Assembly (NCBI GenBank): GCA_003990765.1
Contig: RBNJ01000007.1
Span: 1-64,000 of the forward strand
DNA length: 64,000 nt
Reading direction: 5' to 3'
Source: Jimgerdemannia flammicorona
Taxonomy: Eukaryota
How positions within the stretch are numbered: the stretch's first letter is position 1; each line of letters starts with the position of its first letter. The notes beneath the pieces were generated by a model. That model was not told where the DNA came from, searched no databases, and saw nothing but the letters and a program-made list of their open reading frames with translations. The position numbers were made by a program, and so were the translations under genes. Below are positions 2,392 through 50,540 of the stretch, piece by piece.

Positions 2392-2399
2392 ACTCTCCT

Positions 2400-5760: not shown

Positions 5761-5770
5761 GAATTGTAAA

Positions 5771-5785
5771 CCACTGCTACCAAGT
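5771..5785 (-). promoter_or_regulatory. Primer-binding site, initiator tRNA-Met-like
   Basis: ACT-TGGTAGCAGTGG follows the 5' LTR in element sense. TGGTAGC is complementary to the ...GCUACCA 3' end typical of initiator tRNA-Met. Confidence 0.65.
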
Positions 5786-14300: not shown

Positions 14301-14700
14301 ACAACTACTCCTAGTATAGCAATATTATGAATAGCAAATAAACCTATTTAATAACTCACAAACCACTTTTAAGTAAATCCACTCCCCATTAGGTCCTATT
14401 CCTAACCTCATCATGAAATTTCCTAATTGGGTATTGTCTGCAGTGATACACTGATTCAACTAAGCTGGTCTTAGTTTTTTGAACTTCCTGAAATATGGAA
14501 AATCCTGAATATCCAGAACTAGTCTGAAAAAGGACTTTGGTTGAGACATCAATCCGATCTTGAAATCAATAAGCATAGAGGACATACTTCATATGAAATT
14601 GATCTTGATCTTAAGAAAACAGTCTTCCAGAATATCCAGAACTTCCAGAAAACCCTTCCAGAACTATGTAATGATTACTCTAATAAGTAACCCTCTTATA
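8311..14700 (+). mobile_element. Non-autonomous LTR retrotransposon, family A copy 2, inserted antisense into the LTR of element C
   Basis: LTRs 8311-9816 and 13210-14700. TSD CTATC at 8306-8310 and 14701-14705. PBS remnant at 9817-9830, PPT at 13196-13209. Internal region colinear with A1. Confidence 0.95.
9840..13180 (+). pseudogene. Decayed gag-dUTPase-protease polyprotein of A2
   Basis: Zinc knuckle at about 11720-11768; dUTPase AAGYDLYAA...at about 11845-12250; protease at about 12470-12790; chromodomain stub at about 13050-13140. Confidence 0.9.
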
Positions 14701-14739
14701 CTATCTATAGATTTAGATACTATCTGGGTAGTCTTCAAT

Positions 14740-15814
14740 GATATATATTACTATTGATGATATCATCTCTGATGAAGTAGTCATCTAGGAAAAGTGGTTC
14801 ATAGATTACTTCTCTCTGTTTGCTGAGATAATAATATATCAGGACTTCATTGCCATCCTACAGAATAGCATCATCTGTTTCATATGCTGGATAAGGAGTT
14901 GGTAGGTGAAAGAGAGGTACATTATCTTCACTTTCATCAGATTCACTATCTGCATATCTTCTATAAGTTATGGTACTATGAGTTACAGAGTTATAGTATG
15001 CTGGTGGTTGTGCTTTATATCACTTATATTCAGGTGATAGAGTTGTTGGTTCAATCTTGAGAGTTGTTTGAAGATATAGATTATATTCTCCAGTCTCTTC
15101 ATTATAGTTGAAGTAATCAGAGGTGAATGTAGGTAGATATTTATACTAGTGGTCATTATCTCAATAGGTCTCATAAGTGGTTATGAACTATTGTAAGTTT
15201 ATTAGTAAGGCTGGCAGAGTAATCAGGGTTGGCAGAGATCCTTGGCTTGAGGTCATGTCAGTATCAGAGGGATTATTATCTTCTGCTTCATTATCATCAA
15301 ACTGAATTATATTATAGACATCCTTCATGGCATATCTAACTTGAGGCATTTGTAGGATGTGATCATTGGAATGTAGGAAGATTCTATCTATAGTTTGAAT
15401 ATACTCAATATACTTATGGTTGAGTTCTTATACCATATTATTGATTTGGCCATAGAACAGGACAGTGACCATTTCAGTAGTAATAACTCAGAGGCAGGGA
15501 ATAAAGGTGCTGTACTCATAGAAGAGTTCTTAGTGTTTGCAGACAATAAGTTTCTAGTGTTGAGACATCTGAGTAATGTCTGTATTATAGTAGTATTTAA
15601 TCATATCTTCTAGGAGATGGCTGATCTGATAGTAGCTTGAGATTTGTCCAATTCAGTGGGCCTTGCTAAGTATGTTCAAGGCATTCTATTGGACTTTTAT
15701 GAAGTAGAGAGATACTAGGCTATAGATATTCATGAGGGATAGAGGGGGCATAGCTCGATTGATAATAATATTCCAAATGTCAGTGTGGATATAGTTATAG
15801 ATCTCAGTGGTCAT
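14740..15814 (-). pseudogene. About 350-codon ORF remnant inside the LTR (U3) of element C
   Basis: One reading frame from ATG 15814 (MTTEIYNYIHTDIW...YYQISHLL...ELFYEYSTFIPCL...), broken by stops that revert with one C>T/G>A change; acidic tail. Confidence 0.65.
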
Positions 15815-18800
15815 ATTTGTATATATGTTCAGGAGCTAGAGTTGTTTGTTTGGTTTGTTGTGGTTCTCTGTTTTGATACATCTAAGTACTCAGTATATAT
15901 ACATTCAGTCTTGATTGATAAGACTCTGTTTGTATAAATCTTGTATTCTGTGACTTCGAGTTAACTCAGCTTTATATACTGTAACTTTGGTTTGACTCAG
16001 CTTCATAATTATACAGATGATTTCCAGATTTTTTCAGAGATTTTATGTGATTTTGGTGGCTTGTTCAAAGGGTGATATGTGATTTCAGTAACTTGGAGGT
16101 TCTATGCTTACAACTCTCTCCTTCTTAGCTTTCAACATTCTCATCAGGGCCTTCTAGTTTTGTTCTAGTGTTTTTACACTATTTGGATGGTCAAAAGTCC
16201 AGTAACGTCCATTTTTTCAGAAAGTGGCATACTTATAGTATAGTTGTCTAATATATTGAATTCATATGTTAAAGGGTTATGTGTTTAATACCATATACCA
16301 GAAGTGATTCTGATGTCATTTACTGCTGGAGAATTTTCTCTAAGGAATCTTCTTAAATATCTATACCTTATTTCCCACCAGTGGTATGGGGAGAATAGAC
16401 TGGCTTTCAGTTTTGCTATTTTTCTAGAGTGTTGGTATTTCTTTGTCTTAACTTGCCGAGTTCTTAATTTTATTCATGATAATTATAAGAATACTTAATA
16501 TTCAGGAGGGGTAATATATAGTATATACTGATAGGTGCAGGAGTGTTCAGGTTTCAGTTGTTTAAAGAATCATATTCCTGAACTAAGTCAGTGGTATTCT
16601 AAAGATTGGTTTTAGGTTCCCATATTGTATCATGGATCAGATATCCTTTCCATTTGACAAGGTACTTAGGATGGTTCTTGTGACTATATTTGTTGAGGAT
16701 TTGTTCAACTTCATATTCTTCTTGGTCAATAATAATGACAGGTACAGGTGGTTCTGTGGTTTAGTTTAGAAATAACTCATCATCATTTTTATTGTATTGC
16801 TTGAGATATTAAACATTGAAGACCAGGTGAATCTTAATAGTATCTGATAGCACCAGTTTGTAGAAAGTTGGAGAAACTTGTGTAATAACTTTGAATGGTT
16901 CAATAAATTTACTGTTCAGCTTTGTAGATAGTCTATATTTGAGGTTATCAACCTGGTATCCTCAGATGTCCAGTAGAACTTTTTCTCCAATATCAAAGGT
17001 TTCTTCTCAGCAGTACTAATTGATATACTGTGACTGTTGTTCTTGAGCTTGTGATAAATTCTTGATAGCAATCTGGTTTAAGTTGTATATTCAGAGTAGG
17101 AATTTTTCAATGGCTTTGACTATGGAGAATTCATCAATAGTTCTGATAAGGATTAGAAGAGTATTTGGATTTTGTCCTATATTGGTGAAGAATGGGATCA
17201 TTCTAAGAGAGGCTTGCTTGCTGTTATTATAGGCAAACTCGACTATAGTGAGGTATTCATACCAATCATCTTGTCTGTAGGAAATATAGTTCCTTAGCAT
17301 TTATTTCAGAGTTCAGTTCATTCTTTCAGTTTGGCCATCAGTTTTGGAGTGAAAGGCTATGAATAGTGCAAGTTTTATTTCAAGGTGAGCATGGAGGGTT
17401 TTCCAAAAGTGGCTGGTAAATTTTGGGTCTCAATTACTAATAATAATTTTGGGAAGACCATGATAGTAGAAGATATTATCAAATAAGAGTGTAGTGATGT
17501 CTGGTGCTGTTGCAGTATAGCAGTTAGTACAAAGTGGGCTTATTTGCTAAGATAGTCTATGAAGACAATAATTGCATTTTTCTCATTCTTGGTTTGGGGT
17601 AGTTATACAATGAAGTCTATAGAGATTTGTTTCCAATTAGCAGATGATCCTATAGTCAGATATTTAGGATTTAACAAATACTATAAAGTTATTTTCCAAA
17701 ACTTCTATTAGCTCTATATAGCAGATTAGCTAAAGACCTATATTACTTCCTGTGATACCTGTTAATATAACAAGTTCTCAACACTAGCAAAACCTAGCCT
17801 ACTCCACCCCATCCTAGTTGGTCTATATATACAATCCAGTGAATGAGTCAATTTTGAAATTCTGCCAAAGAGTATGGCTAAATATTTTTGATTAAATAGA
17901 GTTATTAGTATAGAAATGGTTAGGCAATTAGATAAACATACCCACTATAGCTTGGATATTGATTTTATTTGTCTTTGTGTTCTTTTTGATTTTGTCAGAG
18001 TACTTGTCTTTTATGTGTTGATATATATTCAAAGTTAAACCACTAAGTATTTTGAACTTCTGGCTGTATAGTTTATGGAGATGGATGAAATAGTATTATA
18101 TATATATATATTAAACAAAGTATCAGTCATATCATAGATACATTTTTTTTTTTTTAATTTTTTATCTGTAATAGTTATAAATAACATCATCTCCTGTCTT
18201 AGTACAATATTGCCAGATTTTTGAGTGAGGATTGCATAGAAGGTATGAAACTATCAGAGATATTTAACTTAAAGTATCATTGGTACTGTGAACTGTTGAA
18301 GACTGATCTGTCAACAGATGTGTTTGTATGTTTGCATATGTGTTTTTTGCATATATATGTTTATACATATATATATGTATATATATTGTATATATATATA
18401 GATATATTCATATAGAGGATTTAGATTAGAGGATTCAGATTGGAGAATTTAGATTAGAGAATTCAGTTGAAGGATTCAGATGAGGATTCAGATTAAAGGA
18501 TTTAAATTGGAGGATTCAAATTAGATGATTCAGATTGAATGATTTGGATTGAGTGATTCAGATTAAATGATTCAGATTGAGTGATTTAGATTGAGTGGTT
18601 TGAATTAAGTAGTTCAGATGAGGTGATTTAGATTAATCCAAGTTGATTTGGATTGCTTTGGATTTGAGATTTGGATCAAACTATCATGTAATAAATCAAA
18701 TTCAGATTTAATTTAAATTGACTCATTTGAAGCACTATACCTTATACAGTATGCTAAATTGTGCCAAAAATGTATATATAGCTATACTGAGAGCACTACT

Positions 18801-20330: not shown

Positions 20331-20559
20331 GCTTTCAGAAATAGTATCTAGAGATAGACAGTAAGGGATATTAAACTGATCAAAAATTATACAAAGTTGA
20401 GAAATTTGATACCACATTTGGTAGGTAGTGAAGAGAAGTAAAGTAAGCTCTATAATTACTATTTCATATTCCTCTTATTTATCTTATCTAATTTTTAGTT
20501 TGAAATTATTGAGAGATATAATACAGCAATATATTCTACTAGTGTAAGTCAATGTATAG

Positions 20560-22596
20560 TATCACATAGTGGTTGCTGAGTCCTTCAAATATATCAGATT
20601 CTCTCCAAGGTATATCTCTTAGACTAACTACAAGTTTGTTATAAGCAAGATCTTATTGGAGTGCCTTTCCAAGATCTTATAGTCCTCAAATGTCTTATCT
20701 TTAAACTGTCTTGTTATCTTTAGATTATTTGCATAAAATTGAGGATAAGTGAACTAGAACTGAGAGAACTATATTATACATATTGTCATATGGTAGATAC
20801 TGAGTCCTTCAAATATATCAGATTCTCTCCAAGGTGTATCTCTTAGACTAACTACAAGTTTGTTATAAGCAAGTTCTTATTGAAGTGCCTTCCCAAGGTC
20901 TTATAGTTCTCAAAATTCTTATCTTTAAACTGTCTTATTATCTCTTAGATTGCTTATATAGAATTGAGTGTAAATGAACTGGAACTGAGGGGACTATATT
21001 ATATATATTGTCATATAATAGACACTGAGTCCTTCAAATACATCAGATTCTCTTCAAGGTATATCTCTTAGACTAACTACAAGTTTATTATAAGCAAGTT
21101 CTTATTAGAGTACCTTTCTAAGGTCTTATAGTTCTCAAACTTCTTATCTTTAAACTATCTTGTTATCTCTTATATTGCTTGTGTAGAATTGAGTATAAGT
21201 GAACTAGAACTGACTTTATTTCAAAGGAAATAAGAGGGGTATTTATATAAAATATAATTTGATAGTTACTAAGTTATAAAGCTAAATATAAATTTCAATA
21301 ATCAAATAAAATACTAAAACACAAAAAACTATAGTTGTCTGAATAAATGGTTATACAAGTTTAGGATGTCAGTAGAATTTCAGTGGTACAGAAAAAGGAT
21401 ACCAGAAGAATTTTGAGTTATACAAGATCAGAATGCCAGAAAAATGACAGTTATACAAGAAAAGAATACTGGTAGAATCTGGTGTTACTAAGAACTTAGA
21501 GCAGAAAGTTCAGGACTATGGGGGCTTCATCTTCATTACTATCAAGGCCAGAGGTCAGAGACAGGATGTCTTCAAAGGAGATGAGGTCCATGAATATTTC
21601 ATCCATCTCATCATATAGATTGTATGTTTTGTATATATCATATGAGATAACATCATTGCTGATGATATCATCATGTTTAGTGGCAGAAAGAACAAGGAGG
21701 TCCAGGGCTCTCTAATCTATAACATTCTCTTCTACAAAATTAGAAACAAATATGGGGTCTTGGGGAGGTCTAATCTGGATGCTAGGGCCTTAGAATACTA
21801 AGATCAATTGTTGCAGGAATTGATCAGAATTGTCCTTGAGGATAGGGTTCCAGAACTCTTCTATCCTATCACTGTTGAGAGTAATAGTAGACTGGGCTTC
21901 TGTAGCCACAATAACCTCTAGTACATTGGTATGGTGGGCTGATAGTTCCTTGAAGTCTGAGATCTTAGTGTACTCCAAGTTGGAAATCAACCATGATGCA
22001 TGTCTGAAGACTTGGTAAATCTTCTTTGCTTTCCTTATTTCATATATATCTATAGAGTGGCATCTTGTATTTCTTGGTGACTGGCCTGAGGGAATTCCTA
22101 GCAGAGGAGATTTCCTATTTCATACTCCTGCCATATCCAGAGGTATTCAGTAGTGATAGTGATCTTTGTTTCCATTTCATAGCAGTAGAGAATATAATAA
22201 TAGGGGTCACCAGTACCCAGGTTGATGCTAGGAGTCCTTCTTATATGAGTCCTCATAGCTCTTCTGATGTCTTGGAACATCCTATCTTGGACTAAGGGGC
22301 CTTGGTGGTTCCTGAACCTTGAGGTTTAGTGAGCAGCAGGTATTTTATTTGTAGTAAGTCTTTAGAACTATTTCTGTAAGCTTTGTTTAGATTGCTGCTA
22401 CTGTGGTTTCTTAATTCTTCTTTTATATTCCTCGAGATGTCTATCTTGTAGTCACAATGACTCACAGTTGGTCATCATTACTCATCTTATAGCCTGAATG
22501 AGTCATATCATATAATCTTCCTATGCTCTGATCTGGTGGCTTATAAGAAAAGACTGTCTCCTGTGCTGATGTCATTATTTTGAGGTTATCATTACA
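20560..22596 (-). mobile_element. Solo LTR of family B with triplicated terminal (U5) unit
   Basis: Reverse complement of LTR 38431-39997. TSD ATAG at 20556-20559 and 22597-22600. Units of about 224 bp start at 20560, 20784 and 21009. Confidence 0.92.
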
Positions 22597-23529
22597 ATAG
22601 CCAGCTGATATATAAGACCCAGTTCTTGCTTAAGCCTTGTCATATAATCCAGCTTATCAAACTTTGAATACTTCCTCACAAATATCTATTAAGACCTGAC
22701 TTGTCTGATCTCTTAATATTCTCCTCTAAATTACTAAAACAACTTCCTTAGTATCAGCATCTAGGACAATATAATTGTGATTTGAATCCAGAATATTAGC
22801 TGGCAAATCAGAGGACTTCAAAAATATCATAGTTTGAAAGAGACCTGATGGGATATTGATGCTCAACTTTCTCAGAATCCTGTATGTAGAGTATGGTAGT
22901 TTGTTCTGCTGTGAGATCAAGTCTTGAAATTCTCAATATTTTGAAATCTATTAAACTTAGAATCTAAAACAGAGTTTGAATAAATTTAGCTTTAAGATCC
23001 TGTTAATTTTGCCAGTATTACTGCTGTAGATTCAAAAAATCCATCAATTGTACTTTATACTAGTTCTTCTTAGCTTTCTGGAAAATTAAATAAAAATAGA
23101 ATAATCTTATCAACAACTTACAATTAATGGACATGCCCAGCTCTCCCTGAAATCATACCTAGAAATTACCTAATCTTACCTTGATAGTTAGAAGATATTG
23201 AAAAATTCAGTTATATATCTTCAGACCCATTAAGAGAGAGCTCTCAGGAAAGTAGAAATACCACAGCTCAGATAATCTCTCATGATAAGGGCTCTGGAAT
23301 ATCTCCTGAAGTATATCAATCCTATACTTCATATTGATAACATAAATCAGGCAGCCTAAAAACTTTTCCAAGATATTGTATTTCAGCAGTTTTCTAAAAT
23401 CTAGTCTAAAAGTAGCCCTATTAGGTGAAAGAGTAGTGGGCATTGACAGAACAGCCTCCAACTCCAGCCTTGAAGTAGTCAGGAATTCACTCAGATCAAA
23501 GTCAATAGGGATGAAATCATCTTTTATTC

Positions 23530-25472: not shown

Positions 25473-26544
25473 GGGGAGGGGGGTGGTGGAAAAAAAAAAG
25501 CAATACTGTACTGCAATAGCTAGACCAGGTATGTGATTGCCAAATGGGTCAATATTGCTAGATATATATTCTCACAATTGTCTGGCAGACAGATATACCT
25601 CTGTAATTACTTTTGCAATTGCTGTCAGGCTGCAGTAAAAATCTGGGACTTTTAACTAGTTATGTAAAAATAATCATTTATTTCCTGTTAATTCTCCAGC
25701 AAAACTTCTTATTCAAATTGCTGCTTAGCTATCTATAAAGGCTATTGAATTCAGCTCCTTCACATCAATATTACTCTAAACTCTACCAAATGCTTATAAC
25801 TTTATATATGATTAAAAATATTTTTTCACTAAACCTTAGGATAGAGATATAGTAAATACCAAAACTAGTTTTATAAGCTATATTCTGTGAGATAGCTCAG
25901 ATAATACTAGATTATCCTAACTAGGCAGAATTTAGAAATATCACCACTATTACTACTATCACTACTGTTACCACCTCATCACAGATATCATACAATCTAC
26001 ACTAATCTCAGCTATTCTTCTTTTTGATAATTTCAAATTATTTGAGCTATCAATTTAAGTCTTTTTTAATTACTATGAAATTACAACCTCTATTCTTCAT
26101 TTTCTTACTGAATTTCAAAGTTTTTCTTTGATATATATTATCATTATTCTATACTCCTATATTACTAAGAAAGAGTAATTTTAGTAACTGATAAATTCTC
26201 TAATCTTCTTAGTAAACTAAGCTCAAGATATATTTATTTCAGTACTAACTTACCAACTTCTTCAAATGATCCTCTACTAGATGCTATATAGTGAAATGGT
26301 GACCTCAGAATGATGACATCAGCATAAGAGACAGCCTTTCCTTGCAAGCTACCAGATTGGAATACAAGAAGATTATATGGCATGACTCAGGCTATGAGAT
26401 GAGTAATAATGACCAACTGTAAGTCATTGTGATCACAGTTCAGGCATCTTGAGGAATATAAAAGAAGGATCAAGGAACAGCAGTAGCAGTAACTCAATAA
26501 GACCCACCAATTCCAAAATAGCTCAAAGACTTACCACAAATGAA

Positions 26545-27099
26545 ATGTCTGCTGCTCACCAAACCTCAAGGTCAAGAAACCACCAAGATACCTCAGTTGA
26601 AGAAAGGATGTTTCAAGACATCAGAAGAGCCATGAGGACCCATACAAGAAGGACTCCTAGCCTCAACCTGGGTACTGCAGATTCTTATCACTTTATTCTC
26701 TACTGTCATAAAATGGAAATAAGGATCACCATTGCTACTGAATGCCTCTAAATGTAGCAGGAGTACAAAATAGGAAACCTTCTTTGCTGGGAGTTCCCAC
26801 AGGCCAGCCCTCAAGAGTTACAAGATACCACTTCCATAGATATATATAAAACAAGGACAGCTAAGAAGATTCATCAGATCTTCAGACATGCACTATGGTC
26901 GATCCCCAACTTGGAGTATATTAGAGTCTCAGATTTCAGAGATCTGTCAGCCTGCTATATCAATGTACTAGAAGTCAGGGTAGCTACAGAAGCCCAGTCC
27001 ACCATCACTCTCAATAGTAATGAAGTAGAAGACTTCTGGCATTCTATCCTTCAGGATAACCTAGATCAATTCCTGCAAGGATTGATCTCAGTATTCTAA
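26545..27099 (+). pseudogene. 184-codon ORF inside family B 5' LTR, unknown function
   Basis: MSAAHQTSRS...MFQDIRRAMR...EYKIGNLL...LISVF*. Same length at 38684-39238, and at 22343-21790 with a 1-nt deletion. Confidence 0.8.
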
Positions 27100-27707
27100 G
27101 GCCCAAGCATCCAGATTAGACCTCCCTAAGACCCCACATTTATTCCCTATTTTGTGGAAGAGAATCTCATAGACTGGAGAGCCCCGACCTCCTTGTTCCC
27201 ACTACTGCTAAATGTGATGACATCATTGGCAATGATGTCATCTCACATGATATGCATGAAGCATATGAAATACGTGACCTATGTGATGAGACCAAAATGT
27301 TCATGGATCTCATCTCCTTTGAGAACAGTGATGATGAGGATGAAGTTCCTATGATCCTGAACATTCTGCTCTAAGTCCCTTAGTTATACTGAATTATGCC
27401 AGCATCTTTTTCCTATGTAACAGCTATTCCTCCACCAGTATTCTGACCTTATGACTCAGAGTTATTCTAGCACTATTTTCCTGTATCACTGAAATTATAC
27501 CAGTATTCTGAATCTGTGTAACCATCTATACCAACCCTGGAACTTGGCAGTTTTCTATATTTCAGCATTTTATTTAGTTATTGGAATTTATATTTAGCTT
27601 TATATCTTAATTATATTTTGTATAAATATCCTTTTTTTTTTTTTTTATAGTCTCTTGGACTCCATCTTTATTACCAGTCTATGAATAAGTATACAATAAC
27701 ACCCCCT

Positions 27708-30700
27708 CTACCCTATCCCCCTCGGGGGACCTCTCCCCTCCTCTACACATATAAAGACCACCCTCTCACCAACAACTCCAACTCTCCCACCACTCTGACC
27801 ACAGATTTTCACCACCAAGTGGTACCTCTGACCCCCCTGCAGCCCCCAACCAAGCCACCAGCCTGTCAAGGTATCCTCCATAAGGTACTGCCACCGTGAT
27901 AACCGGCTCCCCAAGCTCTGCCACCTCTCCTCCTCAAATATAAATAGCCAGTGACTGGCCAGCCCCACCCAAATAGCCAATGCCCAGCCTAGAGTAATCC
28001 ACTCCTCCCCTACCCCTCCTATCAATCGATCCCTCAGGTCCTCCCACCTCCCCCGTACATCATCACCCCTACGCCTTACCCCCAAGCGGTCCCCAATGGT
28101 CTGCCAAAAGTCTCCCAACACCTCACACTCCCCAAGCCAATGTTCTGGCGTCTGTACAAATCCCCCTTCCTGCCCTACATTATGGCACTCCTCGCAGTCA
28201 AAGCAGCCCCCTACAACGAGATGTCCTGAGCGGAAGTTAAGCATCACATTCCTCCTCAGCATATGCCACCAGACCACCCAGTACTTCGGCAGCATCCAAT
28301 TTTTCACCATGGCACTCCAGGTCCAAACCCCCTGCCAGTCCCACTCCTCGCCAATTCTGACTCCTTGCCAATCACTAGGCCACAGATCCTGGCCTGGTCC
28401 CCTTTGGCATTCGATTCCATCACCAATGTTGAACTCCAGCAAAGGCATGCCTCCCAGAAGAATGCCATCCCATCTCCACATCGCCGGGCCCCAAGCCCTC
28501 TCCCCCTCATCCCCTTGCCAGCAGATACCAATGCGGTGTGCCCCCTCAGCTATCCCCCACCAGAAACCTTTATAACGCAGTTGCCCAGTGTTCTGAAGCC
28601 CAACTAATGAAAGAAGATCACCCGTCAAGCCTCTTGGTGATGTCTGCCTCTCCCACACCTTCTGCAGCAAGGGAACCCAGCCCCCTCCACACAACTCCAC
28701 TGCCCTCCTGAGCCACCATGCCCTCAAGCAGTGTAGTCTTTTGGGGAAGTCCACCAGCCCAAGACCACCTCTCGCCACTGGTAGGGACAGTGTTTCCCAA
28801 CCAATCTGACTCCGTCTGCCAGCCCAAATCCATCCCTTGGCCACCTTCATCAATCGCTTCACCACCCAGGCTGGGAAGTCCAGATAATAAGTCAAATACC
28901 ACAGTTTCGGCATCCAGTATACATTCAAAATCAAGATCCTTCCTGCCAGAGAGAAGTGTCTTCCCCCCCAACCCCACAGGACCTCCTCCCAAATTCCAAT
29001 CCTCTGCTCCCACCATGGCCTGGGCAGAACAGATCCATAGACTGACAAATATATGCCCAAGTACCGCACTGCCTCTCCGGTGGGGACAATTGTTCCAATA
29101 ACCTCTCTGCCCACCAGTCTGTTACCCAGCACCATCGTTTCGCACTTGTGCCAATTCAGCTTTGCCCCAGAGTTCTCCTCATACCACTCCACTGTCTTCT
29201 TGAGCTCCTCGACATCCGCAGGTACTCCCAAACCAACCACCATGTCATCTGCAAAGGCTCCAACTTTCCAGCCAATTCCATAGATAGAGAGCCCCACAAT
29301 CCTCCGCCGAATTCAGTCCATTAGAGGCTCTAAGGAAAGTGCATACAAAATGGGGGACAGTGGGTCCCCCTGGGGCACTCCCCTACCCAGAGGGAATACT
29401 ACCCCTCTATGTCCATTATACACGAGCGCAGCCCTACTCCTTTCCAGTAGGCTGACTATCACCGCCCAAAATGGGACCGGAACCCCAATCCTATCCAACA
29501 CTTTCGCCAGCCAGACTCGCTGCACCCGGTCATAGGCCTTCTCCTGGTCCAAGAAGACAAGACGCCCATCCAGTCCACAGGCTCGAGCACCTTCAATAAC
29601 TCCATGTACTCAGGCCATGCCATCTCGAATAAGCCGACCCCCTATGAAGCCCCTCTGCTCAACACCTATAATTTGCTGGGCCACCTTCTGCAGCCTTGCG
29701 ACCACCACCTTAGTCACCAACTTTCTGTCCATATCTAGCAACATTATCGGCTGCCAGTTCTTCCAATCCTCTCACCTTCCCTTGTTCTTATAAAGCAGTG
29801 TCACCAGCCCAAGATCCTGCTCCCCCACCCATCTCCCTGACTGCAATATGGAGTCACACAGTGCTGTCAACTCTCCCAGTATGCCTGGGACTCCAACCAT
29901 TTGCTTCCAGAAGTCCCAGGGGAGGCCATCCTCCCCTGGCACCATACCTGAGGCTGTCGCGGCAAGAACCTGGTGGATCTCGTCCTCCTTTACAGGCATC
30001 ACCAGGTCACCTAATCCCTCAGCTCGTGGAGGGTGCCAATCTTCTAATGTATGGTCAATGGCTATAGCATCTGCCCCACTCTCCTCCTCACTCCACAATG
30101 CACTCCATCATGCCTTCAGCATTCCAAGGATATTCTGTACACTATGCACTAGTCTACCATCCAAGTCCAGTATCCCTTCTCACCGCTGCTGTACCCTCCT
30201 CACTTGAAGCGTCCTCATAAGAAACTTGGAAGGCCTCTCCCCTTCCTCCAGCCCCTGCCAACGAAGCTGTGCCACCAGGCCTTGCACCCTTGACTCTTCC
30301 TCTTCCCTCAGCACCTGTTGTAGTTCCCCAACCTCTATCTTCACTCTTATTATTCTCCAATCCTCTTCTCCCTCCACTATTGCCAGACTCACCCACTCCT
30401 CCAGAAGCCCAGCCAATCTAGTAGAAGCCCAATGCACTCTCTGCCTTCGCTGCCTCCCAACCACTCTGCCAGCCTCACTCCAATACATCCTGGCCATCTC
30501 TTTCATCCTCCTCCACCGAATCCCAATTATAGCCCCTTCCTGCTGCCACTTCGCCACCTTCATCTGAATGTCTTTTGCCCACTCCTCCCACCAGGACTCG
30601 TCATCCAACAAGGAGGAATTCAGGCGCCAATGTCCAGGCCCATCACCACTACTCCCAAAACACCCCTGTCCCAAAAGGCCCCAGTGATCTGACCACGGAC

Positions 30701-31364
30701 ACCACTCTACCTCCAGCCCCTTCCAGACATCACGGCCCCAACAGTCGGCCATCAGAATCCAGTCAATCCTTGTCCCCAGACCTCCAGCCCAATGCGTATA
30801 CACCCTCTGATCCTCCCAGTACTTCCTACCAGCATCCAACATCGCTCCTAGCCTTTCGACCTCCTCCCACATCGCCAGCCCCCCACTCCTACTCTCAGCA
30901 CCCCGTCCTCCATCAGTTCTATCCAGCCGTATATCCCGAACCATATTGAAATCTCCTCCAAGTATATCCAACCCAGCTTCAGCAAGGGTCCCACTCTCCA
31001 GGAGACCTTTCACCCAATCCACATGCTCCCCCTGCACAGCAGGGCAGTAACAGGAGCCAACTGTAACTGGCTCCCATCCTGCACGAATCCACTCACCCCA
31101 GACCAGTCTCTCCCCCCAGCTCCTCACATCCTGTATCTCCCCTCTGCCTTTCCGAACCAGAATTCTGACCTTGCTGTTCCAAATCGCCATGCCACCCCAT
31201 TCCTTAGTCCATTCCATCCTATCAGAATCATCCTCGCACCTGACATCCTGCAGGAGGAAGAGATCGGCCTCTAATCTCTTCAACCAAATAAAAATGTTCC
31301 TGCGTCTAACTGCACCCCTAAGCCCATTCATGTTCAAAGAAAAAATATTGGTTGTACTGTTCAT
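27708..31364 (-). pseudogene. LINE ORF2: AP endonuclease + reverse transcriptase + C-terminal Cys/His finger
   Basis: SLNMNGL, LQD, GGDFN, RIDW and SDH (APE). LDQEKAYDRV, GVPQGDPLSP, FADD and YLGI (RT). CEEC...HWLGEC. One frame with five internal TGA stops. Confidence 0.93.
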
Positions 31365-31397
31365 AATGATGAAATATGGTTTGTTTGCAATCAATCC

Positions 31398-33428: not shown

Positions 33429-33799
33429 AATACTAGTAGCTTTTCTCCAGAAACTGTATCAAAAGTATTGCCAAAGCTTGTGTAACCTGAATGTTACTGG
33501 AGAAAGGATGTATAAATATCCTTCTTATTTCCTCTGAAATAAAGTCAGTCAAGTTCACTTATACACAATTTCTTGCAAGCAATCTAGAAGATAATAAGAC
33601 AGTTTAAAGATAAGAAGTTTGAGGACTATAAAATCTTGAGAAGGCACCCCAATAAGAACTTGTTTATAACAAACTTGAGTTAGTCTAAGAGATATATCTT
33701 GAAGAGAATCTGATATATTTGAAGGACTCAGCAAACACTATGTGACAACTTGGTACCTATTGGCTGGTAATTCAAGATGAATCTCTCACTTTCAAGCTG

Positions 33800-36700
33800 A
33801 AAAATGAACAACCACCACAACAACTACTCTGACTACAAGAGTCACCCCTATAAGAATTCAAGATAAGATGGAAATGTATTCCCCCACATTCTATAGATAT
33901 ACTACTAAAGAGTCAATTCTGACCTCCATTGAAGACTTTGAACAATTTGCCACTATATGAGCCCTTAGTATGGATGCACAATTGGCTCTTCTACCAGTCA
34001 ACCTCAGAGGACCTGCCAGAGACAAGTTTAATATAGCCACTATCACTGATAATGGTGCAGCCAAACTTGCCAACATAAAGGCCTTCCTCAGAACAATATA
34101 CTATACTGAAGAGATCAAATAAGCTCTCAAGGATCAACTCAATACTATCTGCCAGGGACTCAGTGAAGATCCCAACTCATTCTATACCTGGATCTGCCAC
34201 CAGATTGTCTTGGCTGGCTATAATGATCACCTCAAGGAACAAATAGCAGATTCAACCTTCCTCAAAAAAGTTCACCCTGAAATTGCCCTAGCAATCTGGT
34301 CTATCCCAGCTGTACTGACTCTTGATCAGAAAGTGGTCTTTGTACAGAGATATTGGACTATCAGACACCCTGCCAAACACTCAATGGAAAAAATAACTAG
34401 CATCAAGATAGAGCCATCAAAGCCAACTAGTATCATACCCACCACAGTTGTAAACAGACAACTATCCTCACTTACCCCCAAGGCAATCAAAGTTGACCTA
34501 GTGAAGGAACTTGCCAAGCAGTTTACCGAGATGACTGCATATATTGGTGATGTTGTTAGAGAAGTCTGAAGTACCAACAGGAGACCAGTGCAGAGATTTG
34601 CAGCTGCTACAGAAGAATACAATATCACATATTTCAAATGTGGAGAAGAAGGCCACTATGAAAAGAGTTGTAGGACTGAAACAAGATGCAAAGCCCAACC
34701 AAGCAATGCTAGCAGAACCAGAGAACAAACCAATATAGTAGTCATCAAGAAGATTGGTGACACTGATAATAAATAATACTATAAGGAGCTTGAATTCTAC
34801 CCTGCTACTGAAGGTACCAGAACCCAGTCCAAGCCCTATGATAAGAAGAGCAACTGTAAGCCAGTTGGAAGACCAAAGAAGACCCCAGCTATCACTATCC
34901 AAAGCAAGACGCAACCTAAGGAGATTGATCAAGACATAGAGTTAGAGGAAGCTACCCACCAAATCATTGAAGACACTACTTCAGTCTTAGGAGAAAGTGA
35001 AAGCAAGAAGGAACAGAAGCTGCATAAGACTAAGATCTACTAGTATAATATCTACAAGGACCTTAAGGAACAGAAGGTCAATGCTACTTTTGGACAGCTA
35101 GCCAAAGTCCCTGCCTTCAGACAGTAGTTAAGAGTAGGACTTACAACTATTGCCAAGAATCAAGAGTACAAGATTGTAGAAACTCATGATGTATAAGAAG
35201 ATGATCAAGAAGACTCAGGTGAAGAATCTGAAGACTAGCACAAGACATCAGCCTATACCCCATGTCAGATCAAAGATTGTATCTTTAATACCATCATTAA
35301 TATCAGTACTGGAGGATACCTCATGAGCAAGAAGGCAATTGACCATTTAGGCTGGAACATTGAAGAGTCCACCAAGATGGTCTATATCACAGCAGATGGT
35401 ACATAAGCTACCCCTCTTAGCAAAATCTGAGAAGTCTCCATCAAGATAGGAGGAGCTACCATTCCAGTAGATGTGATTATTACAAGTGCCACCAACTATG
35501 ACATTCTCATTGGCAACCAATGGCTTCACAAGGCCAAGGCCATCATTGACCTCAATGCCCAGAAGATACAGATCAATTATAGAGAAAGAAAGGTACAAGT
35601 CTCTATCAATATCCACAAAGGAGTTCTATCAGACATGGAGAAAGGAGATGAAGAGGACACAGAAGTCTTCATACACTCAGTGAACAAGAATAAGAACAAG
35701 ACACCCAAGCTCACAGATAAGCAGTGGTACAATAAGATCATTGATAGCTATGCTCCTTAAGGAAGATGCCCCCATGGTACTAAGATGTACTGCTCTGAAT
35801 ACTTGAATAACTGCTGGTTCTGTATCAGTAAAGTCAGAAAAATCTGCCAACAGAAGCATGAGCAAGAAGCTGCTGAAGCAAAAAGGAAAGCTAAAGAAAA
35901 TGACCAGCCTCTAGAGCTGCAAGCTGACAGTGATGATGAGGAGGAATAAGAACCAGATATCACCCTCAAGGTCAAGAAGTTTCACCCTGAAGCCAAGATC
36001 CCAGAATACAAGACTGAAGGAGCCATAGAAATAGACCTTGCTAGCATTTAAGATGCTACTCTTGAACTATAGGCCACTACCCTACTTGGCACTGGAATTA
36101 GAGTCAAGTTGCCAGAGAACTATGCTGGAATTATCAAGACCAGGAGCAGTCTGGCCAAAAGAAAAATCTCAGTTAAAGGAGGAGTAATTGACCCTGATTA
36201 CACTGGTGAGATCTTTCTCATAGTTAGAAATCACAACCCCACTACTCCATTTGAAGTCAAGAAGTATGAAAGGATTGGCCAGATGCTGATCCACGAAATC
36301 AAGAAGTCCAAGATCACTGAAGCCATCAAACTCATCAAGACCAAGAGAGGAGAACAAGGCTTTGGATTTACTGGAAGAGGAGCCTATACTGCTACCAAGA
36401 TTACCGAACTTGAACACAAGAAAGACAGGGACCAGAACAAGCACACATATACCATTGGAGAAAACTTTCCCCTAGAAGAACAACTTCTCAAGATCCTGCA
36501 CCAGAACAAAGAAATACTTGCTACAGACTTCAGAGATATCCACAATCAAGAACCCAAGCACTATCATGAAGTTAATACTAGTGATACCAAGCCCATCTAC
36601 CAGAAAGCCAGACCTATACCACCTGCCTATAGAGAATGGCTGCAAGCAGAACTCAAGGAAATGGAAGAAGCTGGAATTATCAAGCAAGCTATCAGTCCCT

Positions 36701-38075
36701 GGGCTTCACCCATTGTCCTTGCCCTGAAGAAAGGAAGTAAGTCTGGAGAGTTTGCCCTAAGACTCTGTATTGACTACAGGAAGCTCAATACAATTACCAA
36801 GAAGGATAGACAGCCCTTGCCAAATATTCAAGAAATTCTTACCACTCTTGGAAACAAAGCCAAATACTACACCACCTTAGATCTATTCTCAGGTTTCTAT
36901 CAGATTAGTCTCACTCAAGATGCCAGTGAGAAATCAGCCTTCATCATACCTGATGCTACCTATATCTACCTGTGAATGCCATTTAAAATGTGCAATACCC
37001 CAGCAAGTTTTCAATGAATGATGAATAGAGTCTTCAGCAATGAGATTGGAAAATGGCTCTTTGTCTATGTTGATGATGTGATCATCTTCAGCAATACTGC
37101 ACAGGAATATATCAACTATATATAGCTAGCTCTCAAGAAGCTCAAGGAGTATGGCCTCTACATCAAGCCCAAGAAGTGCAAGTTTATAGCTTAGGAAATC
37201 ACCTACCTAGGACACCTCATCAATCAGACCAGAATCCATACAAATCCTATGAAGATTGAGGCTGTTGCAGCCTACCTGAGACCCAGAACAACTACAGAAG
37301 TCCATGCCTTCTTTGAACTGGCCTCCTACTACAGAAGATTCATCAAAGGATACTCCAATATTGCAGCACCTATCTACAAGCTACTGAATAAGGAAACCAA
37401 ATCTGCCACTACAAGACACCAAGGCAAATTATCACAGACTGTAGCACAGAATTTGTCAATGGATTCCATGAGATAATATATCAGAAATACAAGATTCAGT
37501 ACATCAAGACCACTGTGTACTACCCTCAAGAAAATGGACAGACAGAGAGAACCAATAAGACTCTCAAGAACATCCTAGTGAAGATCTCAGAGACATATGA
37601 GAATTGGGATAACTACCACCCAACTGCTCTCTCTGTCCTATGAGACATATAGTTACAGAGTACACACTTTACCCCAAGAGCACTGCTCTTTGGAGAAGAA
37701 GATTCTGATGGAACCTCAGCCACAAATCTAGACCTAACTTGGAGATAGGTTGATGCAGAAATCCAGAGGCTATACCAAATTAGGAAGAAGGCTGAAGATT
37801 ATATCATCAAGTCATAAGCACTGATAAGGAAGAATGCAGAAAAGAATCACAAGACCCTAGAACCCATCCAAATCAGAGAAAAGGTCCCACTATATTGAAA
37901 TATGGTAGAAGCCTCATGGTCATGAAAACTGGAGCCCAAATAGGAAGGACTCTTCTATATATAAGATATTAAGGGAACTACCTTCTGGCTTAGAAAAATC
38001 TCAGGAACCATACTGCCTACCATGGTATATAGGAATAGACTCAAGAAGTACCATGAACCTATACAAGAGAAGTAA
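33800..38075 (+). pseudogene. Family B gag-pol remnant
   Basis: Knuckle [C]FKCGEEGHYEKSC at about 34630-34670. Protease at about 35250-35610. dUTPase RSSLA, GGVIDPDYTG, RGEQGFG at about 35960-36375. RT SPWASP, CIDYRKLN, LDLFSGFYQI, YVDD (about 37067-37078). Jumps at about 37400 to the integrase core (NGQTERTN). Confidence 0.92.
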
Positions 38076-38430
38076 AACGTGATAACTGCTTGTAAGGTTC
38101 TAGTCTGCAAATTGTAACAGCATGTCCTGTAACCAGCAGGCTATCTGTCTGGACTATTCTCTAAGGGATATGATACCAGCAACTACTCATCTGTGAGACT
38201 TTTGAAGCCAGAGGAGTTCAAACCATCAACTGATTGGTCAAGATCAGAATCAGGCCCTTGCTCTATATGAAGGGAGCAACTCTTCACCATTACACCAAAA
38301 TACAAAGAGAAGACACTAGTCCATAAATACCACTTTTTGACCCCTTGCCAGAGGTTATGGGATTAGCAAATTTTTCAGGACTGGACTAATGAATAAGGAT
38401 ATTCAAGAAGATCCTTATTCAGAAGAAAGA

Positions 38431-39997
38431 TGTAATAGTGACCTCAAAATGATGACATCAGCACAAGAGATAGCCTTTCTTTGCAAGCCACCAGATCAGA
38501 ATACAAGAAGATCATATAGTATGACTCAGACTATGAGATGAGTAATGATGACCAACTGTGAGTCATTATGATTATAGTTCAGGTATCTTGAGGAATATAA
38601 AAGAAGAATCAAGAAACTGCAGTAACAGCAACTCAATAAGACCCACCAATCCCAAAATAGCTCAAAGACTTATCACAAACTAAATGTCTGCTGCTCGCCA
38701 AATCTCAAGGTCAAGGAATTACTAAGGCACCTCAGTTGAAGAAAGAATGTTCTAAGACATCAGAAGAGCCATGAGGACCTATATAAGAAGGACTCCTAGC
38801 CTCAACCTGGATACTGCAGATCCTTATCACTTTATTCTCTACTGCTGTAAAATGGAAACAAGGATCACTATTGCTACTGAATGCCTCCAAATGTGGCAGG
38901 AGTATGAAATAGAAAACCTTCTCTACTGGGAGTTCCCACAGGCCAGCCCTCAAGAGTTACAAGATGCCACTCCCATGGATATATACAAAACAAGAACAGC
39001 TAAGAAGATTCATCAGATCTTCAGGCATGCATCATGGTTGATCTCCAACTTAGAGTATGTTAGAGTCTCAGATTTCAGAGATCTGTCAGTCCACTGTATC
39101 AATGCACTAGAAGCCAGGGTAGCTACAGAAGCTTAGTCCACCATCATCCTCAATAGTGATGAAGTAGAAGACTTCTGGCATCCCATCCTCCAGGACAACT
39201 CAGATCAATTTCTATAAGGATTGATCTCAGTATTCTAAGGCCCAAGCATCTAGGTTAGACCTCCCCAAGACCCCACATTTGTTCTCTATTTTGTAGAAGA
39301 GAACCTCATAGACTGGAGAGCCCCAGACCTCCTTATTCTTACTACTGCCAAATGTGATAATGTCATCAGCAATAATGTCATCCTGTGTGACATATATGAA
39401 GTATGTGAAATGTGCAATCTATGCAATAAGACTGAAACATTCATGGACCTCATCTTCTTTGAGGATAGCAATGATAAGGATGAAGTCTCCATGATCCTGA
39501 ACATTCTGCTCTAAGTTCCTTAGTTATACTGAATTATGTTGGCATCCTTTTCTTGTGTAACAGCTGTTCCTTTACTGGCATTCTAACCTTGTGACTCAGA
39601 GTTATTTCAGTACTATTTTTCTATATCACTGAAATTCTGAACCTATGTAACCATTTGTGCTAATCCTGAAACTTGGTAGTTTTCTGTATTCCAGCATTTT
39701 ATTTGATTATTAGAATTTATATTTAGCTTTATATCTTAGCAATCATTGAATTATATTTTATATAAATACCTTTCTTATTTCCTCTGAAATAAAGTCAGTC
39801 AAGTTCACTTATACACACTTCCTCACAAACAATCTAAGAGATAACAAGACAGTTTAAAGATAAGAAGTTTGAGGACTATAAGATCTTAGAAAGACACTCC
39901 AATAAGAACTTGTTTATAACAAACTTGAGTTAGTCTAAAAGATACACCTTGAAGAGAATCTGACATATTTGAAGGACTCAGTGACTATTATATGATA
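38431..39997 (+). repeat. 3' LTR of family B (1567 bp, contains ORF 38684-39238)
   Basis: Direct repeat of the split 5' LTR. Confidence 0.95.
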
Positions 39998-40001
39998 ATA
40001 G

Positions 40002-42600
40002 CAATAATAAGCTAAAATCAAGATGCTGAGCTCCACTAAGATTTAAGATACATATATTTGAATAGTCTCAGCTTTAAGAGAACATCTCCTTAGTGTAATA
40101 AGCTCTTTACTGCCAGAAAATACTCTTTCAACTAGTACACTTATTGCAGGAATAGCTAAATAATCTTAAGTCATATTTCTCAAATTGGAAAAGTCTATTT
40201 GGCATGTCTGTAAATTTAAAATACAGAGAATTTTAGAGTTAAAAACTTGAAAAGATTCAATAATATTTAGTAGAGATAATTATAGAAATTCTCATATTCT
40301 ATCAATCTAATGTACTAGTACTCTCTAATAAAACTACCTAATCAGTAGATAGATATATTATAGGCTTATCTATTAAAAATTCTCTTTTTCTTTTTCTACT
40401 ATAAAAATGCTGAATAAGAGAATTATTGGTATAGTTATTCAAACTATAGTCTAAGCCTAGTAGAGGTACATAGTTTTTCTGATATATATTAATAATTACT
40501 TGCTCTGCTTTCTCAATAAATTACCTTTTCCAGCCTTGATCTTTATGATATTGAAGCTTTAATTATAGATCTAAAACTGATCAGATATCTAAATTATAAT
40601 TAGAATGATGAAACTTCTTATTTTAATTTATAGAAAGCAATACTTGACTTACTAGTGCTTATAAAAAATATAGAAGTACTAGTTTTTGAGTAATATTTTT
40701 TAAACTTCTTCAGAGCTATATCAATGGCTTCCTTTTGTCTCAAGAGAGATATATGATTATTTTCTAATAAGTCTAATAGGTTCTCAAGTTGATCAATCAA
40801 GAGATTATATACTGAAATTGCAGAATATATTATTGGAAACTTTTGCTGAACAACTTCTTTTATATATTCATTAAAATACTAGAGTAAAATAAATAAAAAG
40901 AGATGAGCAAAATAATACTAAATCAGCAAAAATACTAATAAGTACTCTTCTACTTACTTACAAAACTTTAATAACTTCTCTTAATTTCTTCTACTCACTC
41001 TTCTCAATTATCATATCTCACATTTCTCTATCTACAGAAGTAGTAGAATCTAGTGCCTGAATTATATTTAAATAAGTTAATAAGTCTAATACTATTCTCT
41101 AATATTATTATTAGTAATCTACTATAGTAAATATTAATACATATTTAATTATTATAAATATCAAGTTCCAATATATACTAATATCTAAAATAAGTTCTTT
41201 TGGAGTAAGATTGATTACTTTATATTATTCAGTAAGTTTTTTTTACTGTAGTAGTAATGATCAGATTATAATGATCAATTTGTACAACTTTGAAATAGTA
41301 TTAGAGCTTATACCAATTTTACTCCAATTACTAAAGAGTTGTGTAAGATAATCTTAAGCAGTAAGTTTCAAAACATAGATCTGATATCATATATAGTTAT
41401 TGTCTACATTAAAGATTACATTTTCTTATTGAAGTTTGATTGCCAAAATATAGAGAAATATAATATTATTGGAAGTATTGTCTATTATAATAGCTAATAT
41501 CTGCATTTTAAAATTTTGAAATATAAAATTATACAGAAAGCAGTTAATAATTAAAAGTAAAAACTTTTTTTTTTTCTTTTCATCCTCTTTTAACATCAGT
41601 TTAAAAATAAAAACTCCTGTATTTTAGTTGTAACTCCAAGCTCTTGAATATGGTTTATAAATACTTCTATAATATTTTCTCTAGAATGAGAACTCTCAAG
41701 CTTCATAAAGTCAAGAGTGAGAGTTTGAAGCTGCTAATTGGTATCAATCCAATATCTAGTAATACTAAGAAATGAAATGATATTTGGAAATATCTAGATA
41801 TTAATTATAAATAAAATTTTATCTACCATACTCTATAGTAAAATTTGAAATACAGTTAGCAACTATATTTGATTCAATAATATCTCTAATATTACTAATA
41901 ATAATCTAAATACTTTTATCTAAAGTTTTTAATGGAGATTATTATACTCTTTTTTATAGGTCTCTATGATATCATTATGAATAATATCAGTACTTAGAGT
42001 ATATAAATCAGGCTTGATAAGACTAAAGAGACTTTATAATAAAGTACTCTCAATAGTTATAAATGATTGGTCTTTATATATAATCTAATGAATAAGTCAA
42101 TTTTGAAACTCTGATATAGAATATGATTAAATTATTTTTCAGAAAAAAAGAAAAAAAACTTAAGAGGTGTAAAAGATATATTTTTGAATCTATACTAAAA
42201 TAAGAGAGAGATCATCTATTTACTATAGTTGGAATATCAATTTTACTTAATATACATATACTATATTCAATTCTATTTTATCTGAATATTGAGCTTTTAT
42301 ATACTTTATTATATTTATAGTAGAGCCACCATATATCTTGTACTTCTGCCTATATTTTAAAAATTTTATACATATATCAAACAAACTATGAATATATCTA
42401 AAGTATTATAAGTTTTACTTTTTTTTTTTAAAAAAAAAAAAAATTACTCATAATACTTGCAAGTGATTTCATTTTTACCAATCTTGGTACAATGTTATCA
42501 GACTTCAGAATAAGGAGTATAGTATGGAATATTATTCAAAAAAGATTGAATATTGTTTAAAGAAGTCTGACTTAAAGTATCATTAGTACTTAAAATATTG
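40002..42600 (-). pseudogene. hAT2 transposase remnant (intron-containing, heavily mutated)
   Basis: BED-finger-like HCTKIGKNEITCKY at about 42450-42495; FMKL catalytic-region motif at about 41700; DYLAIPAISVLVERVFSG...SLKAETI at about 40060-40170. Confidence 0.8.

Positions 42601-44903: not shown

Positions 44904-50540
<5,637 letters not shown>

Follow-up and report, generated by a model that had tools for sequence, protein, structure and literature searches.

Can a long terminal repeat (LTR), normally treated as a non-coding control region and masked by the pipelines that annotate transposable elements (TEs), carry a protein gene of its own? The question is raised by the first 64,000 nucleotides of a Jimgerdemannia flammicorona contig (GenBank assembly GCA_003990765.1, contig RBNJ01000007.1, forward strand), the whole of which is called the window below. 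A preliminary description, made from the letters of this stretch, had reported the same 184-codon open reading frame (ORF) in three LTRs of one gypsy family, family B, with the first copy at 26545-27099, and a similar protein in the otherwise different LTR of a second gypsy element, element C. Family B is represented here by the 5′ and 3′ LTRs of element B (B1 and B2) and by a solo LTR (B3). Taken together, the comparisons make it very probable that the frame is a genuine, selected gene borne by the LTR, and the gene is about 270-290 codons long when intact. The best overall explanation, which we consider probable on balance, is an LTR-borne accessory gene that would form its own transcription unit and encode a trans-acting product.

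The three family B LTRs share one frame, with starts at 26545, 38684 and 22343. In all four copies of the gene in the window (three B, one C), it lies in sense orientation and wholly inside the LTR, and all four are broken by mutation (Table 1). These copies are pseudogenes, inactivated by transitions biased toward CpA, as in repeat-induced point mutation (RIP). The C-to-T changes that can be polarised fall mainly at CpA (27 of 42 in B1 and 30 of 51 in B2), and CpG is almost absent. Over codons 1-184, 59 sites separate B1 from B2, which belong to the same element. Every one of these changes is a transition, and with 19, 19 and 21 at the first, second and third codon position they match neutral decay after insertion. 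The preliminary description had argued that the ancestor was open because most internal stops differ between copies. Consistent with this proposal, no stop within codons 1-184 is common to B1, B2 and B3.

Frame-specific constraint is seen when B3 is compared with the other two copies. B3 and B1 differ by 29, 27 and 53 changes at codon positions 1, 2 and 3. The ratio of nonsynonymous to synonymous change (dN/dS, Nei-Gojobori) between B3 and the B1/B2 state over codons 1-184 is 0.25 in frame (bootstrap confidence interval 0.15-0.40), as against 1.43 and 1.16 out of frame. B1 versus B2 gives no frame effect (0.37 in frame; 0.64 and 0.38 out of frame). Because decay by transitions alone biases the Nei-Gojobori estimate low, to the point that this neutral pair already yields 0.37, only the comparison between frames is used. 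A ratio near 1, which the preliminary description had named as a sign against selection, is not seen: the in-frame value lies far under the out-of-frame controls. The insertions and deletions that separate the lineages inside the ORF also keep the frame: against B1 and B2, B3 shows an insertion of 24 nt and a deletion of 6 nt, both in frame. The two 1-nt deletions each occur in a single copy. Outside the ORF, such changes are 1-11 nt long, and two of ten are multiples of three (both 3 nt).

Intact relatives of the protein are present in public data. A database search with the B1 copy, read with X at its stops, finds four intact proteins with 72-83% identity, and an exhaustive profile search finds four further intact proteins, with identity down to 29%; five clusters only are matched among the 1.84 billion representatives searched. 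With the 291-codon ORF of a 1535-nt metagenome contig (L001), this makes nine intact public sequences, of which the eight database proteins are 138-342 aa long and 29-83% identical. The four sequences that reach the N-terminus (P0005, P0010, P0011 and P0015) have the same start, MPA or MPP, and motifs are common to the relatives as well. This divergence excludes a gene-calling artefact on one recent repeat family. Scans of metagenome contigs confirmed none of 243 pattern matches with one alignment and one of 183, L001 itself, with another; scans of viral contigs confirmed none of 125 and none of 58. In the window, the B2 copy scores 405.8-409.6 bits against the B profiles.

The relatives also bear on the length of the gene. 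The TAA at 27097-27099 (codon 185) is common to B1, B2 and B3; at this position the four closest intact relatives have Q, and P0010, P0011, P0012 and L001 have E. The intact relatives run about 90 residues past this codon, into an acidic tail ending ...DLISFED...DEAP.ILNFLL. This tail is also encoded in the window: in B2 in one frame to 39514, in B1 past the 1-bp deletion to 27374, and in B3 to 21496. Judged by these alignments, the true gene is about 276 codons, 26545-27374 in B1, and the interval 26545-27099 covers its first 184 codons only. The shared frame of the preliminary description is thereby retained, but its length of 184 codons is not. As CAA to TAA is a CpA transition, parallel hits in all three copies are plausible.

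Could the frame instead be a chance or relic ORF in a repeat, with no functional gene? All four window copies are broken, and no known domain is matched. Set against this are the nine intact sequences at 29-83% identity, the frame-specific constraint, the in-frame indels between lineages and the RNA contigs discussed below, and we give a relic almost no weight.

The nature of the protein was examined through its domains, its predicted fold and its composition. Six intact proteins (P0005, P0010, P0011, P0012, P0014 and P0015) and the X-read copies P0002-P0004 were searched against Pfam at E up to 0.01, with no gag, rve, RVT, RNase H or chromo match; the match to an ordinary gag or integrase fragment that would, by the preliminary description, have spoken against the proposal is not seen. 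The six intact proteins match no Pfam family. One candidate, the ATG5 helical bundle region (PF20637), reached 18.5 bits in a stretch of 27 residues, below its gathering cut-off of 21.3, and only in the mutated copy P0001; it was unseen in P0002 and in all intact relatives and was rejected. A sequence profile search of the PDB gives no match at E up to 1. AlphaFold2 models are all-helical and of low confidence (predicted local distance difference test, pLDDT, 35.7 with 4 sequences and 55.8 with 9), and a helical core of about 200 residues is predicted. A Foldseek search of the PDB with the AlphaFold2 model finds no match at E up to 0.001. The best Z in a wide VIA-align search, 4.5, is far under the chance level for helical models, and the ESM Atlas gives no informative neighbour (best feature score 0.83, template-modelling score at most 0.33). 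The protein has no hydrophobic run of 6 or more residues and neither a signal peptide nor a membrane segment, and its last 75 residues carry a net charge of -10 to -19. The conserved core includes the FRHAPWSIPNLEY region. In the tail, DLIxF is found in seven of the eight tail-bearing public members and an LNFL-like motif likewise in seven of eight, and the C copy has NIIQF and LINLQ.

Is the protein of element C the same protein? The strings on which the preliminary description had based the comparison, YQISHLL, LFYEYSTFIPCL and INNM, all occur in a single frame on the minus strand, which opens with the ATG at 15814. A database search with this frame returns one intact protein, P0014 (128 aa, 66-67% identity, E 1e-46), with the same ATG start; as a database query, P0014 returned only itself. 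Since an intact relative exists, the element C frame is a decayed real gene. P0014 reaches 17.1 bits with the B profile, its residues 5-126 aligning to profile positions 18-141, and the single-comparison P is 1.7e-7. None of 1000 shuffles reaches this score (maximum 7.1 bits), and reversed P0014 scores 0.0. When 189 stop-to-stop ORFs of at least 80 aa from the window serve as decoys, the best of them reaches 4.0 bits, as compared to 43-225 for six B pieces. MAFFT independently gives the same register, with YQIGRLL of P0014 under YEIGNLL and FYEYSTFIPRL under FRHAPWSIPNL. In Smith-Waterman comparisons with P0014, scored against 500 shuffles, z is 4.45 for P0010, 3.7 for P0006, 3.4 for P0011 and 2.3 for P0005. 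Homology of the B and C proteins is accepted on this basis, through the single intact C-type sequence P0014.

The elements that carry the gene lie in the left part of the window, which self-comparison and Pfam scans resolve into nested retroelements with RIP-like mutations. Element B has TG..CA termini, and its 4-bp flank ATAG is found again after 40009, as a target-site duplication. Its dUTPase (6.4e-24) and RVT_1 (8.6e-27) are matched in Pfam along with zf-CCHC, RVP_2 and a remnant of rve_3 downstream of the reverse transcriptase (RT). Element C, on the minus strand, retains integrase remnants, SH3_Tf2-1 (1.2e-11) and Chromo (4.7e-11) within 16107 to about 17700. It has a single LTR in the window, the limits of which are set by homology to the LTR ends of a third group, family A; the LTR ends and polypurine side of family A match those of element C. 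The LTR remainder, 8309-7631, is separated from the first part by the insertion of a family A copy, A2. The C gene copy is placed within the LTR by the start homologous to family A together with the tail restored via the CTATC duplication of this insertion. Taken together, elements B, C and A show the features of Ty3/gypsy elements, namely an LTR pair with TG..CA termini, target-site duplication and polypurine tract, and a gag zinc knuckle, retropepsin and RT before integrase, in copies that are all degraded or deleted.

Family A is a deletion derivative with two copies, A1 at 903-7274 (minus strand, duplication CAAAC) and A2 at 8311-14700 (plus strand, 5-bp duplication CTATC). It contains gag, dUTPase (6.4e-28), then protease, then a chromodomain remnant close to that of element C, and the part from RT to integrase is missing. 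The family is non-autonomous, with LTRs of 1.5 kb, and A1 is inserted in a copy of a repeat present intact at 40006-40800. An early guess that the start of the family A LTR is an integrase C-terminus was dropped, having no Pfam support. The dUTPase lies after the protease in B (35431-36380) but before it in A1 (about 2790-3730). B and C/A are different gypsy lineages because they differ in domain order (protease-dUTPase versus dUTPase-protease), in target-site duplication (4 versus 5 bp) and in LTR DNA. The claim that two gypsy lineages carry the same gene is in this way upheld, the element types being distinct, the B and C LTR DNA unrelated and the proteins homologous. The B profiles, narrow and broad, match the B copies only in a six-frame translation of the window, leaving the element C and family A LTRs unmatched, and tblastn with five relatives gives no match within the family A LTRs. 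The two best decoys of the test above (4.0 and 3.0 bits) are both in family A LTRs and are not counted as evidence.

How the gene might be expressed is suggested by the layout of the LTR. In B2, the TATAAAAG box is at LTR position 166, the ATG at 254, the stop codon at 1082-1084, TATATAAATA at 1329 and AATAAA at 1358. This second module, at positions 1329-1363, is present in all three B LTRs, with AATAAA 22 nt after TATATAAATA. It suits the boundary between the unique 3′ region (U3) and the repeated region (R), and on that reading the ORF, at positions 254-1084, would belong to U3 and have a separate TATA box upstream. In L001, TATAAAAG is 80 nt upstream of the ATG, as compared to 88 nt in B, and the 16 nt directly before the ATG, AAAGACTTACCACAAA, are identical in L001 and B1; the proteins are about 41-46% identical.

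Two sequencing runs in which the neighbouring genes are found, X1 and X2, bear on transcription. Both are kept as contigs, and depth over the region was taken at 80% likeness; such depth cannot rank genes. Neither is on record as RNA; that they are RNA is judged from their contigs, in which the GT..AG and CT..AC introns of the flanking genes, about 80-150 nt long, are spliced out. In X1, depth is 517-1204 in the LTR bins, 752 at the split LTR end, 0-1.1 in gag-pol, 0-3.6 in an AT-rich flank and 43-252 in genes. In X2, it is 19-129 in the LTR bins and 2.5-6.7 in gag-pol, with 121 in the last gag-pol bin; the 3′ end of pol is matched by a 4601-nt contig of X2. Contigs that match the LTR are less than 90% identical to the window; at sites with T or A in the window they mostly have C or G, and so derive from less mutated copies. 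RNA sequencing had been proposed as a check on the gene, and both spliced-RNA runs do hold contigs over the family B LTR. Given the limits of contig depth, these data show only that RNA of the family LTR exists, untied to gag-pol RNA.

The same LTR would read differently if the ORF lay in R and the unique 5′ region (U5). The TATAAAAG box at position 166 would then be the main promoter, and the protein would be the first cistron of the genomic RNA, before gag; the plant element Ogre has a leader ORF upstream of gag. The TATA box and the 16-nt leader are indeed the best-conserved non-coding features, common to the distant relative, and the ORF begins just 254-292 nt into the LTR in B and C. However, the TATATAAATA/AATAAA module at 1329-1363 is laid out like a U3/R boundary, and an R starting from about position 200 would exceed 1.1 kb. 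The X1 depths (0-1.1 for gag-pol versus 517-1204 for the LTR) and one contig upstream of the first TATA box also speak against this arrangement, which we regard as unlikely. A transcription unit of the gene's own, located in U3, is placed slightly above even probability.

The proposed unit would be roughly 1.1-1.2 kb long. Transcription would begin from TATAAAAG, 80-88 nt before the ATG, with the conserved leader AAAGACTTACCACAAA next, and would terminate at the AATAAA of the LTR, about 275 nt past the stop. The ORF would lie in U3, upstream of the main TATA/poly(A) module, and both LTRs of an element and every solo LTR would be able to express the gene. That solo LTRs would disperse it had been anticipated, and the solo LTR B3 does contain a gene copy. 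The product would act in trans for the element, its acidic tail (DLIxF, LNFL) docking a host factor. The most likely role would be that of a transactivator-like regulator of LTR expression; composition and motifs point in this direction, and the probability we attach to this particular role is low. More broadly, a role as trans-acting adaptor or transactivator-like factor is weakly inferred, with those of copy-number inhibitor or defence antagonist equally open.

The same gene and unit could also serve to restrain the element, by a copy-number control in which dose would rise with LTR number. The known copy-number-control factor of Ty1, p22, is a gag fragment. Each solo LTR, as B3 illustrates, retains the whole cassette, so that dose would follow LTR number, and in X1 LTR RNA is abundant while gag-pol RNA is nearly absent. 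The protein, unlike p22, is without gag similarity, and its sequence does not tell an inhibitor from a helper. By analogy with Ty1, restraint is conceivable but quite unlikely.

Several observations weigh against the reading of an LTR-borne gene with its own unit in U3. One X1 contig spans LTR positions around 36-57, upstream of the TATA box of the ORF, so not all LTR RNA starts at that box. The contigs show no transcript ends, and the U3 position is a plausible placement. In the comparison of lineages, P0012 and P0014 have no pairwise similarity (Smith-Waterman z -0.45), and hhalign of B against C is weak (P 0.027, probability 1.8%, 102 columns). The similarity of the B and C ORFs put forward in the preliminary description holds by way of the intact P0014 but is not significant for the mutated C copy of the window alone, which reaches 1.1 bits against the B profile, a score equalled by 5.2% of shuffles. 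All three B copies have TAA at codon 185, and comparing B3 with B1/B2 over the tail reveals no constraint tied to the frame (dN/dS 0.60 in frame; 0.70 and 0.76 out of frame). For this reason, the lineage of this genome may make a 184-residue product without the tail. In L001, positions 1252-1268, 11 nt past the stop, read GGAGGGAGGA and then TGTAAT, resembling the AGAAGAAAGA and then TGTAAT of B. This looks like a polypurine tract and an LTR start; if it is one, the cassette in the L001 lineage would sit just upstream of the 3′ LTR, outside the LTR itself. Finally, the statement that the gene is always in an LTR derives from the four window copies and not from the eight database proteins.

This last point and the L001 arrangement, in which the stop is followed by an apparent polypurine tract and LTR start, would also fit a cellular gene, captured or derived from the host, whose presence in LTRs is incidental and whose relatives are ordinary host genes. 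Against this, the 1.84 billion representatives yield five clusters only, all of them on contigs of 0.8-1.6 kb wherever a length is recorded (P0005-P0008, P0014 and L001). The ORF is intronless, whereas the host genes nearby are rich in introns of about 80-150 nt. Every one of the four window copies is in an LTR, and the first 100 nt of L001 are like the centre of the family A LTR. A host gene is accordingly very improbable. The likeness in question covers L001 positions 10-103 (67%, E 2e-6), with counterparts at 6609-6701 and 13772-13860 of the window, and may be a remnant of the upstream region of the cassette in family A. Short similar peptides, RMANSHQCTS in L001 and RMASPHKCTS in family A, are also present. 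Returning to the reading of an LTR-borne gene, the position of the cassette in L001 hints that a shift of the polypurine tract moved the cassette into U3 in B and C.

Table 1. Positions, strands and characteristics of the gene copies and of the elements that carry them, in window coordinates
Feature	Position	Strand	Remarks
B1 gene copy, pseudogene	26545..27374	+	stops at codons 69, 71, 185, 195; 1-bp deletion after codon 214
B2 gene copy	38684..39514	+	276 codons, single frame; stops at codons 14, 24, 151, 178, 185, 190
B3 gene copy	21496..22343	-	ATG changed to ATA; stops at codons 6, 82, 185, 211; 1-bp deletion at codon 97
Element C gene copy	15188..15814	-	ATG at 15814, 292 nt into the LTR; 6 in-frame stops in 203 codons
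TATAAAAG box	26457..26464	+	88 nt upstream of the ATG; kept in all three B LTRs
Element B, Ty3/gypsy	26292-40009	+	LTRs of ~1579 bp; self-BLAST, alignment, Pfam
B 5′ LTR (B1), first 1350 bp	26292..27641	+	TG start; resumes at 33511-33748 past the non-LTR insertion
B 5′ LTR remainder, 238 bp	33511..33748	+	ends ...TGACA, then ACTTGGTACC, a putative primer-binding site
B internal part	33749..38430	+	degraded; gag CCHC, protease, dUTPase, RT, integrase remnant (Pfam)
Purine tract AGAAGAAAGA	38421-38430	+	directly before the B 3′ LTR
B 3′ LTR (B2), 1579 bp	38431..40009	+	uninterrupted; self-BLAST, alignment
Solo family B LTR (B3)	20997..22599	-	self-BLAST, alignment
Element C LTR, first 1406 bp	14701..16106	-	starts TGTAAGC at 16106, downstream of a purine tract

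The family B LTRs align over 26292-27641 (plus strand), 38431-39780 (plus strand) and 22599-21228 (minus strand), with identities of 85.5% and 75.6%. The final ~225 bp of the B3 LTR occur as three tandem copies at 20496-21213, beside the solo LTR. The non-LTR retrotransposon that splits B1 (27642-33510, minus strand) is GC-rich (about 54%) and apparently unmutated, with RT and AP-endonuclease ORFs. Its insertion point is exactly the second TATA box of the B 5′ LTR; the left end carries a T15 run, the duplication is GTATAAATATCC, and the insertion is much younger than the surrounding RIP-like decay. Between B3 and element B, the segment 23790-25472 consists of low-complexity repeats with strong GC and AT skew, every frame of which gives runs such as LIYTLLF.

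Beyond the TE nest, the segment 40170-43500 is extremely AT-rich (21-29% GC), has almost no RNA contig cover and separates the nest from the gene-rich right half. The segment 44600-53500 holds host genes with numerous short introns (about 80-150 nt), which spliced contigs confirm. A gene for delta-aminolevulinic acid dehydratase lies at 49257-50537 (ALAD 1.8e-124), and an ORF of the purine/uridine phosphorylase family at 56547-57158.

How does the gene compare with known systems? LTR-internal genes are otherwise known mainly from a few animal retroviruses. The sag gene of mouse mammary tumour virus (MMTV) is likewise a protein gene within the LTR, and hence present in both LTRs. Sag is a membrane glycoprotein of a vertebrate retrovirus; unlike it, the protein described here is without a hydrophobic segment or a Pfam family, and its host is a fungal retrotransposon without env. 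The nef gene of human immunodeficiency virus and bel/tas of foamy virus are small regulatory genes at the 3′ end or in U3. Foamy virus Tas, a transactivator that has an internal promoter of its own and an acidic region for activation, is the model for the working hypothesis, although here the whole ORF and its TATA box lie inside the LTR; there is no sequence relationship. We know of no LTR-borne gene described for the dUTPase-bearing Ty3/gypsy chromoviruses of fungi, and the literature searches return none.

Extra genes beside gag-pol have precedents in plants and fungi. Plant additional ORFs (aORFs) occupy the internal region of the element, either before gag or after pol. The brtn gene of Boty, from Botrytis cinerea, is also an extra gene of uncharacterised role in a fungal Ty3/gypsy element, and, to go by a title of Zhao et al. 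from 2011, is reportedly an additional antisense gene of Boty-like gypsy elements. The passages on brtn in PMC4227169 treat it alongside the internal gag-pol gene and separately from both LTRs. The LTR gene, by contrast, is on the sense strand and inside the LTR, and it is by this description, and not by sequence, that the two are set apart. A review of plant LTR retrotransposons describes aORFs as conserved extra ORFs besides gag-pol, mostly of unknown function, and a term search of its available text finds none of the phrases 'in the LTR', 'within LTR' and 'inside the LTR' (PMC7264820). A conserved extra ORF beside gag-pol is thus what the gene shares with plant aORFs and brtn; the position inside the LTR differs. 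A full-text literature search, over the text open to it, returns LTR-borne ORFs almost only as MMTV sag and, for fungi, brtn as the sole extra gene; it gives no account of this protein family or of a sense-strand gene inside a fungal LTR.

A wider proposal can be framed around complex fungal chromoviruses, in which a self-contained LTR gene, with its own TATA box, leader and LTR poly(A) signal, would make a trans-acting factor of a protein family without known relatives. Each LTR would be an expression unit, the solo LTRs that recombination leaves behind included, and the dose of the factor would scale with LTR count. The factor would be a transactivator, a copy-number regulator or an antagonist of RIP or RNA silencing, and the cassette would have outlasted replacement of the LTR DNA around it, as between B, C and L001. 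We offer this whole as a tentative possibility, held at appreciably less than even confidence.

The finding bears on how LTRs are read. Where RIP has acted on a genome, a truncated frame can pass for a whole gene once copies share a CAA-to-TAA change. Protein may still be made from solo LTRs, which tend to be dismissed as dead remnants, and the gene content of some fungal gypsy elements would be 'complex' in the manner of retroviruses. The protein family is a new one, without a Pfam, PDB or fold match, and its sole known home is a mobile element. As such, the LTR gene family is a candidate for regulating transposition or the genome defence of fungi.

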